From NCBI GenBank assembly GCA_017464805.1, contig JAFTYE010000010.1:75047-139046 (forward strand): a DNA stretch of 64,000 nucleotides. The letters run 5' to 3'. Positions 26,455-37,409 of this stretch are shown in pieces. Positions within the stretch are counted from its first letter, which is position 1; each line of letters begins with the position of its first letter. The notes below the pieces were generated by a model. The model was not told the origin of the DNA and searched no databases. It saw nothing but the letters and a program-made list of their open reading frames with translations. Source of the DNA: Clostridia bacterium (lineage in GTDB: Bacteria; Bacillota; Clostridia; Oscillospirales; CAG-272). The translations under genes were made by a program, and so were the position numbers.

Positions 26455-26490
26455 AAAAATAAAAGGTGCGTCAACCGGAGTTGGCGCACC
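26455..26490 (-). terminator. Intrinsic terminator forming the expression platform of leader RNA copy A
   Basis: Minus strand: GGUGCGCCAAC-UCCG-GUUGACGCACC followed by UUUUAUUUUU. It ends ~10 nt before the RBS of the 187-aa membrane protein. Confidence 0.75.
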
Positions 26491-26508
26491 GAAAAACGCA
26501 AACTCCGC

Positions 26509-26664
26509 TTGCTGCTACACAAACTGAAACAGATCGGAAGTTGCCTTGCAATCACGCTTCGTGGAATTTGCGTTTTTGCCAATTTCAAAAACGCGATTGC
26601 GAAAAAGGGTAAACCTTCCCCATGCTGGGGATACCCCGATCTTATTATTCAGTTTGTGTAGCAA
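26509..26664 (-). ncRNA. Unclassified long-hairpin leader RNA, copy A
   Basis: A ~156-nt imperfect hairpin. The closing helix pairs UUGC-UACACAAACUGAA with UUCAGUUUGUGUA-(GCA bulge)-GCAA. Starts at the predicted TSS. Paralogous to 35015-35164. Confidence 0.6.
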
Positions 26665-26668
26665 CTTC

Positions 26669-26697
26669 ATTATATCATAATTATGGAAAAATATCAA
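26669..26697 (-). promoter_or_regulatory. Promoter of leader RNA copy A
   Basis: Minus strand: TTGATA (26697-26692), 17 nt, TATAAT (26674-26669), with TGa extension. Confidence 0.65.
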
Positions 26698-26706
26698 TCC
26701 CCCCCG

Positions 26707-32664: not shown

Positions 32665-33823
32665 GTTTGCCCTGAAAAACATGGCGATCAAGCGCGCCAA
32701 AATTATCCTGATCGTCATTTCGATCGTGATTTCCGCCTCGGTTGCGATCCTCGCTTATAACGTGTCGGAGCAGGTGGACGACGGCGTGAAAAGTACCGCC
32801 GCCTACTACGATATGATCATCGGTCCGTCGGGCAGCTCTACCCAGCTTGCCATGAACACCATGTTCTTTACCGAAGCACCCCTTGGCACGATCTCCTACG
32901 AATACGTCGAGGCGCTCGAAAAGGATATGCGCGTCAACCTTGTTGTGCCCTTTACCATGGGTGACTCCTACAATGCCGCCAAGATCGTCGGTACGACCCC
33001 CGATTTCCTGACAGACAAGGAGCTTGACGAGGGCGAGATGTTTGATGCGACCTACGAGGCAGTGCTGGGTGCGGCGGTTGCCGAAAGGTACGGTCTTTCC
33101 GTGGGCTCGAAAATGGTCACCTCTCACGGGCTATCCGAGGGCGGACACGCCCACGAGGCTACGCCCCTGACCGTCGTCGGCATCCTTGATAAGACCAAAA
33201 CCGCCTACGACAACGTCATCTTCACAGACGTGGAAACCGTGTGGGCGACCCACGACCACAGCGGGGAAGGGGAGCACGAGCACGAGGAGCATGGCGAGAT
33301 CTGCGCCATCTTGGTGAAATCCAAGAGCTTTAACAGCTATTCGCAGCTCAAAAGCGAGTATAGCGAAAAAAGCGGCCTTCTTGTCATCAACCCGTCCGAG
33401 GTGCTGCGCGAGGTGCTTGAAAACGTGGATATGAGCTCGCAGATCGTGTATATCCTCTGCATCATCATTCTCATTATGAACATCTTTATCATATCGGTGA
33501 TTACGCTTCTCAATATGTACGACTCCAAAAAGGAGATCGCCCTGATGCGCCTCATCGGCATCGGTATGAATAAGATCAATCTGCTCTATATCATCCAAAA
33601 TGGTATTATCGGACTGATCTCTACCTTGCTTGCCTTCGGTGCCTCTCGCCTCTGCCTCTCTCTTATGGGCGGCTACGTGGCATCCATGGGCATCGTGCTC
33701 GACACCGCGCGCATTTATTCTATGGAGCTTGTGATCATGGCAGTGGTGTTCGTCATCAGCGTCCTGCCCACCGTGATCTGCACCCTGAATATGTCAAGAA
33801 AGGACGGCATCGGAGAATCGTGA
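32648..33823 (+). CDS. FtsX/MacB-type ABC transporter permease with His/Glu-rich extracytoplasmic insert
   Basis: 391 aa. TM1, a large extracytoplasmic domain, then 3 C-terminal TM helices (FtsX fold). HGLSEGGHAHE and THDHSGEGEHEHEEHGE lie in the external domain. Overlaps both neighbouring genes. Confidence 0.85.
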   Translation: MTEMFKFALKNMAIKRAKIILIVISIVISASVAILAYNVSEQVDDGVKSTAAYYDMIIGPSGSSTQLAMNTMFFTEAPLGTISYEYVEALEKDMRVNLVVPFTMGDSYNAAKIVGTTPDFLTDKELDEGEMFDATYEAVLGAAVAERYGLSVGSKMVTSHGLSEGGHAHEATPLTVVGILDKTKTAYDNVIFTDVETVWATHDHSGEGEHEHEEHGEICAILVKSKSFNSYSQLKSEYSEKSGLLVINPSEVLREVLENVDMSSQIVYILCIIILIMNIFIISVITLLNMYDSKKEIALMRLIGIGMNKINLLYIIQNGIIGLISTLLAFGASRLCLSLMGGYVASMGIVLDTARIYSMELVIMAVVFVISVLPTVICTLNMSRKDGIGES

Positions 33824-34722
33824 AACGGATCTTGTCGCTCATTCTTATCAGCCTTATGATATGTCCTCTTTTTGTTGCTTGCAGCGGCGAAGATTCCGCG
33901 CAGCTCCTCAGCTTCGCACAGGCGCAGAGCGTAGAGGAAATGCAAAAGCTGGACGGTAAGCGCGTGACGATCATTGGCTATATGTCCACCCTGTCCCCTG
34001 TGTCGGGCAAATTCATGTATCTGATGAATCTGCCCTATCAGAGCTGTCCGTTCTGTATCCCGAATACCACGCAGCTCTCCAACACCATCGCGGTCTACGC
34101 AAAAAGCCAGGACGGCTTCGAATTTACCGATCGCGCGATCCGCGTGACGGGTATATTGGATTTTGATAACTATACCGATGAATTTGGGTATGAGTACAGC
34201 TACCGCATCAAGGATGCGACCTATACCGTGCTGGACACCTCGGATATGCCCGAGGAGCTTCGCCTCTGGCAGCAGCTCGCCTCTACCGATGTGATCAGCG
34301 AGGTCTATTCGATGTTTGACTACGTAAGCTTCCTCTGCCATTGGACCTCCTATACGGCGCAGTTTCAGGAAGGCAAGGACTACCTCTATCCGAGCAACGC
34401 TCTCTACTTTATCGAAACAGAGGGCGCGCAGTTCAACTACGGCTTCCGTGACGGATATTTTGACAAGATGATCGGAACGATCAATGAGGTAGACCCCGAA
34501 GCCTTTGCCGAGCTGACCGCGATCGTCGAGCGCGCCAAGGCACTCGCCGGCCGTGCCTACGGAGCGCTGAAAAACGGCGACTATTATACCACCAAAGAAT
34601 ATGATAATGTCTTTGGGGACGGTCGCTTGCAATACAAGATGAACGATGCGGATTCCTTTGCCGCAGAAATGAATTCTGTTTTTGCAAGCTTCTCCTCTTG
34701 GCTTGCCGATTGGGAAATATAA
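33820..34722 (+). CDS. Lipoprotein with an N-terminal DUF3299-like (OB-fold-type) CPFC segment
   Basis: GTG start overlapping the permease stop (GTGA). Lipobox LFVAC|SG. KFMYLMNLPYQSCPFCIPNTTQ resembles the DUF3299 core (F-L-L-V-P...C.H.PPPP). Confidence 0.65.
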   Translation: MKRILSLILISLMICPLFVACSGEDSAQLLSFAQAQSVEEMQKLDGKRVTIIGYMSTLSPVSGKFMYLMNLPYQSCPFCIPNTTQLSNTIAVYAKSQDGFEFTDRAIRVTGILDFDNYTDEFGYEYSYRIKDATYTVLDTSDMPEELRLWQQLASTDVISEVYSMFDYVSFLCHWTSYTAQFQEGKDYLYPSNALYFIETEGAQFNYGFRDGYFDKMIGTINEVDPEAFAELTAIVERAKALAGRAYGALKNGDYYTTKEYDNVFGDGRLQYKMNDADSFAAEMNSVFASFSSWLADWEI

Positions 34723-34763
34723 TAGAAGAAGCCGTGCGGCTATGCCGCACGGCTTCTTCTATT
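34721..34763. terminator. Bidirectional hairpin between convergent lipoprotein and RHH genes
   Basis: Perfect 20-bp stem AATAGAAGAAGCCGTGCGGC-TAT-GCCGCACGGCTTCTTCTATT. Overlaps both stop codons. Confidence 0.7.
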
Positions 34764-34947
34764 CCTTCTGCTCCCGCAGCTTGCTTTGCTCCTCACGGTG
34801 ATTTTGCACGTATTCGCGGACGGCGCGCTCAATCATTGCGGTCTTGGTCTGTCCCACATCCTCACAAAATTCTTCCATCATGTCGTAGATCTCGACGGCG
34901 ATCTGACAATTCAGTGCCCGCGCTATCTTGGTCTTTTGTTTTTTCAT
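34759..34947 (-). CDS. Small ribbon-helix-helix (CopG/Arc/MetJ-like) protein
   Basis: ATG 34947 after GAGGTGA. 62 aa: MKKQKTKIARALNCQIAVEIYDMMEEFCEDVGQTKTAMIERAVREYV, a beta-alpha-alpha pattern. The tracked N-terminal extension crosses a terminator and is rejected. Confidence 0.7.
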   Translation of the reverse strand: MKKQKTKIARALNCQIAVEIYDMMEEFCEDVGQTKTAMIERAVREYVQNHREEQSKLREQKE

Positions 34948-34965
34948 CTGTGTCACCTCGCTTGC

Positions 34966-34996
34966 AATAAAAAAGTGCGCAGCCGAGGCTACGCAC
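34966..34996 (-). terminator. Intrinsic terminator forming the expression platform of leader RNA copy B
   Basis: Minus strand: GUGCGUAGCC-UC-GGCUGCGCAC followed by UUUUUUAUU. It ends ~12 nt before the RBS of the RHH gene. Confidence 0.75.
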
Positions 34997-35014
34997 AAAA
35001 AACGAAAGCCCCCG

Positions 35015-35164
35015 TTGCTGCGACACAAACGACTTATTCTGCCCGCCTCGAAGCGAAGTGTTATAAGTGGAGCGTTCATTTTTTACAAAAAGTATAGACT
35101 AAAAGTAAAAAATGATACACTTCACCCACGGCGGGGGAAGAGTCGATATTCGTTTGTGTCGCAA
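35015..35164 (-). ncRNA. Unclassified long-hairpin leader RNA, copy B
   Basis: A ~150-nt imperfect hairpin. The closing helix pairs UUGC-GACACAAACGA with UCGUUUGUGUC-(GCA bulge)-GCAA. Starts at the predicted TSS. Paralogous to 26509-26664. Confidence 0.6.
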
Positions 35165-35168
35165 TGCT

Positions 35169-35197
35169 ATTGTAGCATCTTTTTCAAAAAATGTCAA
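35169..35197 (-). promoter_or_regulatory. Promoter of leader RNA copy B
   Basis: Minus strand: TTGACA (35197-35192), 17 nt, TACAAT (35174-35169), with TGc extension. Confidence 0.65.
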
Positions 35198-35244: not shown

Positions 35245-36531
35245 TTACTTCTTCGGCATCATGACCGTCATGCCGCCCATATAGGGGCGCAGGGCCAAGG
35301 GAATCTTCACGCTGCCGTCTGCCTGTAAATTGTTTTCAAGGAACGCAATCAGCATACGGGGCGGAGCCACCACGGTGTTGTTGAGCGTGTGCGCCAGGTA
35401 CTTACCATCCTTTCCATTTACGCGGATACGCAGGCGGCGCGCCTGTGCATCGCCCAGGTTCGAGCAGGAGCCCACCTCAAAGTATTTCTTCTGACGGGGC
35501 GACCATGCCTCCACGTCGCAGGACTTGACCTTCAAATCGGCAAGATCCCCGGAGCAGCATTCCAGCGTGCGAACGGGCACGTCCAGCGAACGGAACAGGT
35601 CAACCGTGTTCTGCCACAGTTTATCGTACCACTTGGGGCTTTCCTCGGGACGGCAGACCACGATCATCTCCTGCTTCTCAAACTGATGGATGCGGTAAAC
35701 GCCGCGCTCCTCGATGCCGTGCGCGCCCTTCTCCTTGCGGAAGCAGGGGGAATAGCTGGTCAGCGTGTAGGGGAGCTTGTCCTCGGGCAGAATCTGGTCA
35801 ATGAATTTACCGATCATCGAGTGCTCGCTCGTTCCGATCAGAAACAGATCCTCGCCCTCGATCTTGTACATCATGGCCTCCATCTCGGCAAAGCTCATAA
35901 CGCCCGTTACCACGTCGGAACGGATCATAAAGGGCGGGATACAGTAGGTAAAGCCGCGTTCGATCATGAAATCACGTGCGTAGGAGATCACAGCAGAATG
36001 CAGGCGTGCGATGTCTCCCATCAGATAGTAGAAGCCGTTGCCTGCCACGCGGCGCGCCGCGTCCAGATCAATGCCGTCAAAACGCTCCATGATATCGGTG
36101 TGGTAGGGAATTTCAAAATCGGGAATGACGGGCTCGCCGAACTTCTCGATCTCCACGTTCTCACTGTCGTCTTTGCCGATCGGAACAGAAGGATCGATGA
36201 TGTTCGGAATGGTCATCATGATCTTTTTAATCTTTTCCTCCAGCTCGGGCTCCATGGCCTCCAGCTCGGCAAGGCGTGCGGCCTGCGCGGCAACCTGCGC
36301 CTTGACGTCCTCGGCCTCCTCGCGCTGGCCCTTTCCCATCAGCATGCCGATCTGCTTGGACAGCTTGTTGCGGTTGGCGCGAAGCGTGTCCGCCTCGGTC
36401 GTCAGCTTGCGACGCTCGGCATCCAGGGCAATGACCTCGTCCACGAGGGGCAACTTATTATCCTGAAATTTGCGGCGGATGTTTTCCCGCACCGCCTCGG
36501 GATTCTCACGAACAAAACGAAGATCTAACAT
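35245..36531 (-). CDS. serS: Serine--tRNA ligase
   Basis: ATG 36531 after GGGAGGAA (MLDLRFVRENPEAVRENIRRKF...). Class II motifs (FRKEKGAHG..., GSCSNLGDAQARR). Confidence 0.95.
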   Translation of the reverse strand: MLDLRFVRENPEAVRENIRRKFQDNKLPLVDEVIALDAERRKLTTEADTLRANRNKLSKQIGMLMGKGQREEAEDVKAQVAAQAARLAELEAMEPELEEKIKKIMMTIPNIIDPSVPIGKDDSENVEIEKFGEPVIPDFEIPYHTDIMERFDGIDLDAARRVAGNGFYYLMGDIARLHSAVISYARDFMIERGFTYCIPPFMIRSDVVTGVMSFAEMEAMMYKIEGEDLFLIGTSEHSMIGKFIDQILPEDKLPYTLTSYSPCFRKEKGAHGIEERGVYRIHQFEKQEMIVVCRPEESPKWYDKLWQNTVDLFRSLDVPVRTLECCSGDLADLKVKSCDVEAWSPRQKKYFEVGSCSNLGDAQARRLRIRVNGKDGKYLAHTLNNTVVAPPRMLIAFLENNLQADGSVKIPLALRPYMGGMTVMMPKK

Positions 36532-36565
36532 GAAAGGATTCCTCCCTAATATAATCACTCTGCTT

Positions 36566-36594
36566 ATTTTATCACAATCTTTTCCAATATACAA
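36566..36594 (-). promoter_or_regulatory. Probable serS promoter
   Basis: Minus strand: TTGTAT (36594-36589), 17 nt, TAAAAT (36571-36566), with TGa extension. The leader is only ~30 nt. Confidence 0.45.
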
Positions 36595-36708
36595 GATTGA
36601 AATCGCTTTTTTGGGGGAAAAATCCGAAAAACCCCTCTTTTTCTTCTCACATTTTTTGAAACTCGCAATAAAATTCAAAAAACTTGAAAATAAAATTATA
36701 TAAATCTC

Positions 36709-36736
36709 TTGACAAAATTAAAAACAGGCGTATAAT
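36709..36736 (+). promoter_or_regulatory. Promoter of the RHH-domain gene / clpB operon
   Basis: TTGACA (36709-36714), 16 nt, TATAAT (36731-36736). AT-rich upstream region with two AATAAAATT direct repeats (36667-36675, 36689-36697). Confidence 0.6.
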
Positions 36737-36740
36737 GAAG

Positions 36741-37409
36741 ATGAAACGAAAACACGGAAGGAAAAGAGCCTTGAAAAATGTTTATTCGCTTATGCTAGAG
36801 GATGACGTGGTGGCGGCGATCGACCGCCTCGCCTATCTGCAAAATACCAACCGCTCGGGGTTGGTTAACCGCATCCTTGCGGAATATGCCTCGGTCGTGA
36901 CCCCCGAGCAACGGATCCGCGAGGCATTCGGCAGGATCACAGCGCTCCTTGACGGGCAGGGGAGCTTCCGGCTCGCGGTCGCGCCCTCGGATACCATGCT
37001 TTCGCTCTCCTCGGCACTTCTCTATAAATATAACCCCACCGTCAAATACAGTGTCGAGCTTTACCGCACCGCCGCGAGTGGCGTCGGAGAGCTTCGCGTG
37101 TCCATGCGTACCCAAAATCGCACGCTCATCGCGTACATGATGCGCTTTTACGAGCTGTGGTCGGGGATCGAGGCATCCTACCTCGGGGACGTGCTCTTCC
37201 GCGCAGAGGATGGCAAGTATGCGCGCCGTCTTCGCCTGAGAAAGGGAAGTGATGCGGCCGACCTCGGCGAGCGGATCGCCGCTTATATCCGCACCTTTGA
37301 CACCGCGCTGAAGGTGTATTTTTCACAGCTGGAGGACGAGCGTGCCGCCACCCGTGAAATGGAACGAATTTTCCGCGCCTATCTGCAAAACGACGGCGCG
37401 ATCCTGTAA
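36741..37409 (+). CDS. RHH-domain protein with uncharacterised ~170-aa C-terminal domain (start uncertain: ATG 36741 or TTG 36774)
   Basis: KNVYSLMLEDDVVAAIDRLAYLQNTNRSGLVNRILAEYA is a CopG-like beta-alpha-alpha. The stop lies 12 nt before clpB. ATG 36741 is only 5 nt from the -10. TTG 36774 follows GGAAGGAAAAGAG. Confidence 0.65.
   Translation: MKRKHGRKRALKNVYSLMLEDDVVAAIDRLAYLQNTNRSGLVNRILAEYASVVTPEQRIREAFGRITALLDGQGSFRLAVAPSDTMLSLSSALLYKYNPTVKYSVELYRTAASGVGELRVSMRTQNRTLIAYMMRFYELWSGIEASYLGDVLFRAEDGKYARRLRLRKGSDAADLGERIAAYIRTFDTALKVYFSQLEDERAATREMERIFRAYLQNDGAIL

Follow-up and report, generated by a model that had tools for sequence, protein, structure and literature searches.

The interval between serS and the gene of a 62-aa ribbon-helix-helix (RHH) protein in an uncultured Clostridia bacterium raises the question of which RNA is transcribed there and whether that RNA governs the gene. 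The interval lies in a 64,000-nt stretch of the metagenome-derived GenBank assembly GCA_017464805.1 (contig JAFTYE010000010.1, positions 75,047 to 139,046 of the forward strand), which was analysed as a whole and is referred to as the window. An earlier note had described an unclassified long-hairpin leader RNA at this site, copy B, and a second leader of the same architecture elsewhere in the window, copy A. On comparative evidence, copy B belongs, as a divergent representative, to a large and hitherto undescribed family of structured RNAs from gut and rumen Clostridia. It is probably a cis-acting transcription-attenuation leader that would work as a four-helix relay.

A search pattern that covered the two arms of P1, the closing helix, recovered 39 loci in 39 species-representative genomes, compared with ~0.5 expected by chance. 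All 39 hosts are gut or rumen Clostridia (Oscillospiraceae, Acutalibacteraceae, Ruminococcus, Eubacterium sp. CAG:180 and unnamed metagenome-assembled genomes (MAGs) of Eubacteriales). A second pattern, anchored on the apical loop and the 3' tail and leaving the closing helix free, recovered at least 120 metagenome stretches. Together, these two narrow patterns yielded more than 150 members from genomes and metagenomes. A covariance model (CM R1), built from 82 non-redundant members and containing the P1 pairs only, identified ~150 members scoring at least 60 bits among the recovered loci (L numbers below); its E-values are rough owing to a shortened calibration. In the window the model found exactly two copies, both on the minus strand, scoring 128.9 bits for copy A and 73 bits (E = 5e-14) for copy B, the latter score being partly circular because copy B is in the seed. 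The plus-strand scores of the two copies were far lower (28.7 and 22.2 bits, respectively). Contigs L006, L010 and L157 also carry two or three copies. A promoter equivalent to that of copy B sits 4-7 nt upstream of P1 in all members inspected, and an intrinsic terminator is present in all true family members. Apparent members without a terminator were rejected as reverse-strand echoes, which arise from the complementarity of tail and target, and no alternative expression platform was found.

The description of the element as an unclassified RNA fold is upheld by the database searches and by the covariation of its helices presented below. At gathering thresholds Rfam 15 gave zero matches across the window and none covering the element in 20 family loci, and no Rfam 15 match fell over the element in 25 further loci. 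A permissive search (E ≤ 10) with copies A and B yielded terminator-like noise only. No description of the family was found in the literature by keyword or literal-sequence search, and a 50-genome noncoding RNA discovery paper, when searched for the names of gut Clostridia taxa and for 'lipoprotein', contained none of these terms. Gut-1 RNA (RF01706) was detected at L055:7632-7726 (+) and L126:1387-1461 (-), 0.6-1.2 kb from a family member; this proximity, seen in 2 of ~25 loci scanned with Rfam, may be a coincidence or a shared neighbourhood.

Canonical family members, including copy A, possess a P1 of 16-20 bp and a P2 of 7-10 bp that lead into a three-way junction. The junction holds a small conserved hairpin, P3 (GGGRAUAnUAUACCC), then a U-run, and a P4 of 10-14 bp that is capped by P5 (GAAUUUG-RUAAAAAUG-CAAAUUC). 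Copy B is of a short, rod-shaped subtype that lacks the P3 branch; L160 (the orthologue of copy B), L126, L166, L168 and units 2-3 of L157 are of the same subtype, and most of these share the P1 type UGCGACACAA. Among members found with the pattern that left P1 unconstrained, the 16 pairs of P1 were 93.3% paired and 12 of them showed double changes, a result reached in 0/500 shuffles. The register of P1 differs from that first proposed, in that the 'GCA bulge' and 'GCAA clamp' at its base are spurious and result from the repetition of GCA. UUGC and GCAG form contiguous pairs, and covariation joins columns 9-11 with columns 205-207 (UGC with GCA or GCG), after which the linker begins. The ~150-nt minus-strand hairpin itself is sound, with a 14-nt inverted repeat at its base. 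The 209-nt transcript region of copy B has a minimum free energy (MFE) of -82.7 kcal/mol (z = -7.3, with 0/200 shuffles as stable), and the median MFE z-score of the family is -9.0.

The inner helices are specific to each member; family-wide, a member's own interior halves pair at -26.1 kcal/mol, compared with -13.6 kcal/mol when halves are swapped. The apical U-tract/A-tract hairpin recognized previously in copy B also stands, its arms (35115-35105 and 35086-35076) being fully complementary over 11 nt. In the family the corresponding local P5 hairpin is 83.6% paired with 4 covarying pairs, and 88.9% paired on a wider set. RNAalifold applied to MAFFT alignments recovered P1 alone; the inner helices were tested without alignment, and the long-range helix described below (a pseudoknot) and the antiterminator were tested through hand-specified pairs. 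The shuffle controls ignore phylogeny, which is mitigated by register-slide controls and by the independent types of P1, tail and terminator. G-U pairs are frequent in the covariation and, together with the strand-asymmetric CM scores, they suggest that selection acts on RNA from a single strand.

The best-supported element of the predicted switch is a long-range helix formed by the 3' tail. The canonical tail, GGAGUUUGCGnUUUU, can pair along 15 nt with the P5 loop and the 3' arm of P5 (AAAAnCGCAAGCUCC). In an alignment whose members were chosen by P1 sequence only, these 15 pairs were 96.7% paired, with compensatory double changes in 9/15 (0/500 shuffles), whereas slid registers gave 35-61%. 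Copy B forms 15 of 16 pairs, with a computed energy of -16.7 to -18.1 kcal/mol (RNAduplex). The 'UCCAC' internal loop, the A-tract arm and the CGUUUUU linker, previously listed as separate features, are all present in copy B; however, they are not separate but together make up the two strands of this 15-16-bp helix. The tail:target helix and the local P5 hairpin compete for the same 3' strand. In both subtypes half of the tail has a duplicate in a local strand, and the remaining half of the target stays exposed as a putative natural toehold for strand displacement.

The tail has a second predicted partner. Over 11 bp in the family, the terminator apex (the tip of the 5' arm, the entire CUUCGG loop region and nucleotides 1-4 of the 3' arm) pairs with the linker together with the six nucleotides that open the tail (5'-C[A/U]AUCGGAGUU). 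The antiterminator pairing proposed earlier is thus real, but its partner is this apex and not the 5' arm alone. In 104 distinct loop-anchored sequences the nine core pairs were 92% paired, compared with 21-61% in slid registers (0/500 shuffles), and the compensatory pair types were A-U 56 / U-A 21, A-U 83 / G-C 8 and U-A 55 / U-G 45. A cruder test against shuffled terminator arms resulted in a mean z of -2.2 and in z < 0 for 40/41 sequences. The copy B antiterminator is computed at -10.8 kcal/mol for the 12-nt segment of linker and tail and at up to -15.7 kcal/mol for a 14-nt segment against the whole terminator. Two marks of a cis-attenuator are present, namely a terminator and an antiterminator that are mutually exclusive with comparative support and, at copy B, an intrinsic terminator followed by a co-oriented gene without an intervening promoter. 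No promoter-like site lies between the copy B terminator and the RHH open reading frame (ORF), in agreement with the earlier view that the RHH gene has no other apparent promoter. The terminator is found where it had been placed, at 34996-34969, whereas the gap from its U-tract to the ribosome-binding site (RBS) is ~6-9 nt and not ~12 nt.

Copies A and B differ across their whole interior, and no identical or near-identical copies are found. The cognate tail:target pairings are computed at -20.2 kcal/mol (A) and -17.7 kcal/mol (B), and the A/B crosses at -8.4 and -12.4 kcal/mol. The cognate antiterminators reach -15.0 kcal/mol (A) and -15.7 kcal/mol (B), and the crosses -11.8 and -11.7 kcal/mol. 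By these predicted energies the two copies are orthogonal within one genome, which is co-evolution in cis.

The orthologue of copy B offers a closer comparison. The RHH protein is a near-orphan with two clusters only among 5.8 billion proteins; it matches Pfam PF10723 (RepB-RCR_reg) marginally, at 22.4 bits against a cut-off of 21 (E = 1.2e-4), and falls under the Pfam cut-offs for both VapB and PSK_trans_fac. One of the clusters, 74% identical, comes from a syntenic locus, L160, with the order clpB, a 211-aa gene, serS, leader, RHH gene and ABC transporter. Its leader scores 62 bits by CM and is outside the seed. P1 is identical in the two leaders, the inner helix CCCGCC/GGCGGG of copy B is replaced by AGGUUUCA/UGAAGCUU with pairing retained, and tail:target is retained in both (-16.7 kcal/mol in copy B and -17.8 kcal/mol in L160). 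The antiterminator GGGGC:GCCUC becomes GGAGC:GCUUC, with 9 contiguous bp and a compensatory change from G-C to A-U. The altered terminator base of L160 falls in the loop and is unconstrained by the terminator itself. All the helices of copy B are preserved in the orthologue of this related species by way of compensatory changes. That the antiterminators of copies A and B differ in a compensatory manner, as the earlier note had argued, is borne out alike by the family covariation, the copy B orthologue and the cognate-versus-cross pairing.

The family is coupled to downstream genes. Downstream sequence was sufficient for 120 distinct members, and in 108 of them (90%) a Shine-Dalgarno (SD) sequence and an ORF of ≥30 aa follow on the same strand, starting no more than 150 nt past the U-tract, at a median distance of 20 nt; random positions gave 29%, and 9% within 40 nt. 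The predicted products have a median length of 91 aa, and in half of them the N-terminus is a signal-peptide or transmembrane (TM)-like segment; otherwise they are unrelated. The commonest downstream gene encodes a Cys-rich peptide family (MSKNIQKRVIDITGVEL...CLGNGEQGFECCCDECDYYLLCFPEFD) without a Pfam match, found at no fewer than 15 loci (L004, L005, L007, L010-L012, L015, L017, L019, L023, L028, L032, L037-L039) and mostly 48-77 aa long, with a few longer predicted ORFs. The other products include lipoproteins, proteins with SHOCT, DUF6809, DUF6591, WG-repeat and Cu-amine-oxidase-N domains, Zn-ribbon peptides and the RHH protein. At L010:400-1640 (-) the whole unit of promoter, leader and Cys-rich peptide gene is duplicated in tandem; the duplicates differ in P1 type and are near-identical in their terminator/RBS regions and peptide genes. 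The last unit of a tandem array at L157 precedes a gene similar to that downstream of the L026 leader, whose protein has no Pfam match.

Taken together, the comparative evidence shows four predicted helices, their mutual exclusivity and their coupling to the downstream gene. In the relay that these helices would form, a strong constitutive promoter would start the transcript at the base of the long hairpin, and the apical hairpin would sequester part of the conserved target strand. The 3' tail, complementary to 15-16 nt of the target, could then invade the apical hairpin from the exposed toehold. A tail that escapes the target would pair, through its 5' part and the linker, with the terminator apex and block terminator nucleation, and with the tail elsewhere the terminator would form. 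The tail-on-target state would thus lead to termination and to release of a short stable RNA, and the tail-on-terminator-apex state to read-through into the gene ~20 nt downstream, here the RHH gene. Termination would be the default state, given that no other pairing is as strong as tail:target, which also has the toehold. An effector (small molecule, protein or RNA) could promote read-through by targeting the apical hairpin and its loop or the conserved junction. Alternatively, pausing of RNA polymerase at the U-run of the tail could favour the apical hairpin and thereby antitermination. It is a more tentative proposal that the family constitutes a new class of riboswitch-like regulators, widespread among abundant uncultured Clostridia of the gut, in which the toehold strand-displacement relay would sense a cellular signal or a trans-acting protein or RNA and control genes for small secreted proteins, membrane proteins and peptides. 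In a speculative variant, terminated leaders could pair in trans with the nascent leaders of other copies and so couple their expression, because tail and target sequences are near-invariant among many members.

The features of the two window copies are collected in Table 1. The copy B promoter lies directly after the serS terminator, as had been noted, and matches 11 of 12 consensus positions, with an extended -10 TG in addition. Transcription is inferred to start 1-4 nt upstream of the 5' strand of P1. Inspection of the leader revealed no conserved small ORF with an SD sequence that could encode a leader peptide. Copy A, which has the layout attributed to it previously, follows a malic-enzyme-like gene and precedes the gene of a 187-aa multi-TM membrane protein (ATG 26438). 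A related MAG, L021, has a leader closely similar to copy A, and its downstream gene is similar too.

Table 1 Features of copies A and B and of the adjoining RHH gene, in window coordinates.
Feature	Position	Strand	Description
Copy A	26455..26700 (approx.)	-	Canonical member: promoter TTGATA-17-TATAAT, three-way-junction body, tail, terminator
serS terminator	35237-35210	-	Immediately upstream of the copy B promoter
Copy B promoter	35197..35169	-	Sigma-70-type; TTGACA 35197-35192, 17-nt spacer, TACAAT 35174-35169, extended -10 TG 35177-35176
P1 5' strand UGCGACACAAACGA	35150..35163	-	Half of a perfect 14-nt inverted repeat
Hairpin body	35033..35149	-	Inner helices CCCGCC/GGCGGG and GGGUGAAGUG/CACUUCGCUUC, then the apical hairpin
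Apical hairpin UCAUUUUUUAC...GUAAAAAAUGA	35076..35115	-	-10.0 kcal/mol; 5' arm mimics the 3' half of the tail
Target strand of the long-range helix AAAAAAUGAACGCUCC	35069..35084	-	3' (A-tract) arm of the apical hairpin and 'UCCAC' internal loop
P1 3' strand UCGUUUGUGUCGCA	35019..35032	-	Pairs with 35163-35150
Linker GCAAC and tail GGGGGCUUUCGUUUUUU	34997..35018	-	Predicted tail partners: apical target or (5' part) terminator apex
Copy B tail GGGGCUUUCGUUUUUU	35012-34997	-	G-run and the 'CGUUUUU linker' of the earlier note
Intrinsic terminator hairpin	34975..34996	-	9 bp, -17.8 kcal/mol; U-tract 34974-34969
Terminator apex, predicted antiterminator partner	~34990-34982	-	
SD and 62-aa RHH ORF	34759..34959	-	SD GAGGTGA 34959-34953; ATG 34947, to 34759 with stop included

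Several features of the surroundings of copy B were also recorded. Directly after the RHH stop codon (window 34723-34757, minus strand) lies a strong hairpin, GAAGAAGCCGUGCGGCAUAGCCGCACGGCUUCUUC, which coincides with the 3' end of a convergent 300-aa gene (33820-34722, plus strand). This position suggests a bidirectional terminator shared by the two genes, in which case the RHH gene would be a monocistronic unit. Between serS and clpB, a 241-aa ORF (window 36684-37409, plus strand) has an N-terminus (…LEDDVVAAIDRLAYLQNTNRSGLVNRILAEYAS…) that is RHH-like by eye; L160 and L162 carry a 211-222-aa gene without a Pfam match at the equivalent position. A T-box leader (RF00230) was considered and rejected, as the Rfam scan found no match in the window, including for serS (35245-36700, minus strand), whereas the same model detects a true T-box on L132, showing that it works in these organisms.

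A number of observations weigh against reading copy B as an attenuation leader. The earlier note had raised the possibility that genes downstream of homologous elements share a function, and the Pfam comparison of the downstream proteins revealed unrelated genes and no common function. No ligand can consequently be deduced from them, which is unusual for a metabolite riboswitch. At L157:14098-14693 (-), three complete promoter-RNA-terminator units stand in tandem, the first two without an ORF, and a few other members are likewise without an ORF; such units fit a stand-alone RNA product. For the 16-bp tail:target helix of the short subtype to form alongside P1, the rod would have to bend sharply at its internal loops. 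Finally, pairing alone does not account for the degree of conservation of tail and target, which hints at a candidate trans partner.

The main rival draws on much of the same evidence and is compatible with the attenuation relay, so that the two are not exclusive. It holds that the element is a stand-alone or dual-function small RNA (sRNA) of ~200 nt, terminated, locked by the tail:target helix and either protein-binding or trans-acting, and that the genes exploit leaky read-through. Every unit has its own predicted strong promoter and efficient terminator, as such an RNA would, and it is served equally well by the orphan units at L157 and elsewhere, by the conservation of P3 in addition to tail and target past pairing needs, and by the lack of a shared downstream function. 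The search across loci for conserved synteny or for a nearby partner or binding protein also found none. Nonetheless, this explanation appears rather unlikely. A same-strand SD and ORF ~20 nt on follow 90% of members and 29% of random positions, a covarying antiterminator would be purposeless if termination were constitutive, and the orthogonality in cis of paralogues in the same genome points to an intramolecular switch.

The remaining explanations concern the gene, the DNA and a known RNA class. RHH proteins are commonly autorepressors, and the RHH gene has no promoter other than that of copy B, so that the leader could be specific to this gene, with the RHH protein binding its own promoter or leader as the earlier note had envisaged. 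The proposal loses its force, and is improbable, because the same leader family stands before >100 unrelated genes, the RHH protein occurs in two protein clusters only, and the conserved leader parts are common to members without an RHH gene; DNA-level autorepression at the copy B promoter would be additional to the RNA mechanism. A DNA repeat or mobile element, such as a miniature inverted-repeat transposable element (MITE) or a repetitive extragenic palindrome (REP)-like sequence, or a phage-borne cassette would account for the long terminal inverted repeat, the variable genomic context, the several copies on some contigs and the presence of members on three faecal-virome scaffolds. The latter, L166 (MT835845), L167 (MT835503) and L168 (MT837627), are unverified 'Bacteriophage sp.' scaffolds from human faecal viromes whose members score 60, 105 and 43 bits, respectively, and they may represent bacterial DNA in viromes or rare prophage copies. 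Such an origin is highly improbable, as was already argued for a MITE or a recent duplication. The interiors of copies A and B differ throughout, without near-identical copies; G-U pairs and strand-asymmetric CM scores indicate selection at the RNA level; and promoter, tail and terminator are conserved outside the inverted repeat. A plasmid search was without match, and two scans of 2.9 million viral contigs (IMG/VR) gave 0 and 1 matches, compared with at least 120 in metagenomes. The least probable explanation of all is a divergent housekeeping long-hairpin RNA such as 6S RNA. A rod-like fold, a strong promoter and a terminator would agree with it, and Bacillus has 6S-1 and 6S-2, which the two copies per genome recall. 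However, copies A and B have no 6S match even at E ≤ 10, L156 bears a genuine 6S RNA (RF00013, 63 bits) besides a family member, and a three-way junction and tail helix are found here, not the central bubble that defines 6S RNA.

If the relay model is true, the family would be a widespread class of regulatory RNA, undescribed until now, in the dominant and poorly studied Oscillospirales-type Clostridia of the human and animal gut. As a new orphan leader or riboswitch candidate it would stand out by the clarity of the comparative support for every step of its switch, and it would be a natural RNA relay driven by toehold strand displacement. The relay would also offer a handle on dozens of genes for small secreted, membrane and Cys-rich peptides. 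The family further provides a ready-made test set, in which the strands of the switch co-evolve in cis and P1, P2 and P4 are free to vary.

Among known systems, 6S RNA (RF00013) resembles the family in its long irregular hairpin, strong promoter and terminator and in being sometimes co-transcribed with a downstream gene; its internal architecture differs and its model does not match. Leaders that precede heterogeneous genes are familiar from c-di-GMP-I (GEMM) and ydaO/c-di-AMP leaders in Clostridia and from the raiA motif. Intrinsic-terminator and orphan riboswitches share with the family a structured 5' leader whose helices covary around conserved junction or loop nucleotides, a terminator/antiterminator platform directly upstream of an ORF, and several diverged copies per genome before unrelated, often cell-surface genes. 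No Rfam model matches the family, however, and no ligand or ligand pocket is identifiable; moreover, sensor and platform would be linked here by a 15-bp tail-to-apex helix with strand mimicry and not by a shared P1 strand. The PyrR-controlled pyr leaders of Bacillus are protein-dependent attenuators with anti-antiterminator logic. They have in common with the proposed relay a chain of mutually exclusive helices, in which stabilisation of an upstream hairpin decides the fate of the downstream terminator. The corresponding model (RF00515) matched only the serS terminator region, at 21.5 bits against a gathering threshold of 54, and not the element, and no candidate binding protein is encoded near the family loci. 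The relay would also contain one more layer than PyrR leaders, as it passes from apical hairpin to tail:target helix, antiterminator and terminator. In the cobalamin riboswitch, the L5-L13 kissing loop is a long-range regulatory pairing, and, as proposed here, a distal loop of the sensor domain pairs with the expression platform and sets the outcome. The two RNAs are similar in neither sequence nor structure, and in place of a short kissing loop the family would employ a 15-16-bp helix that requires strand displacement of a local hairpin.

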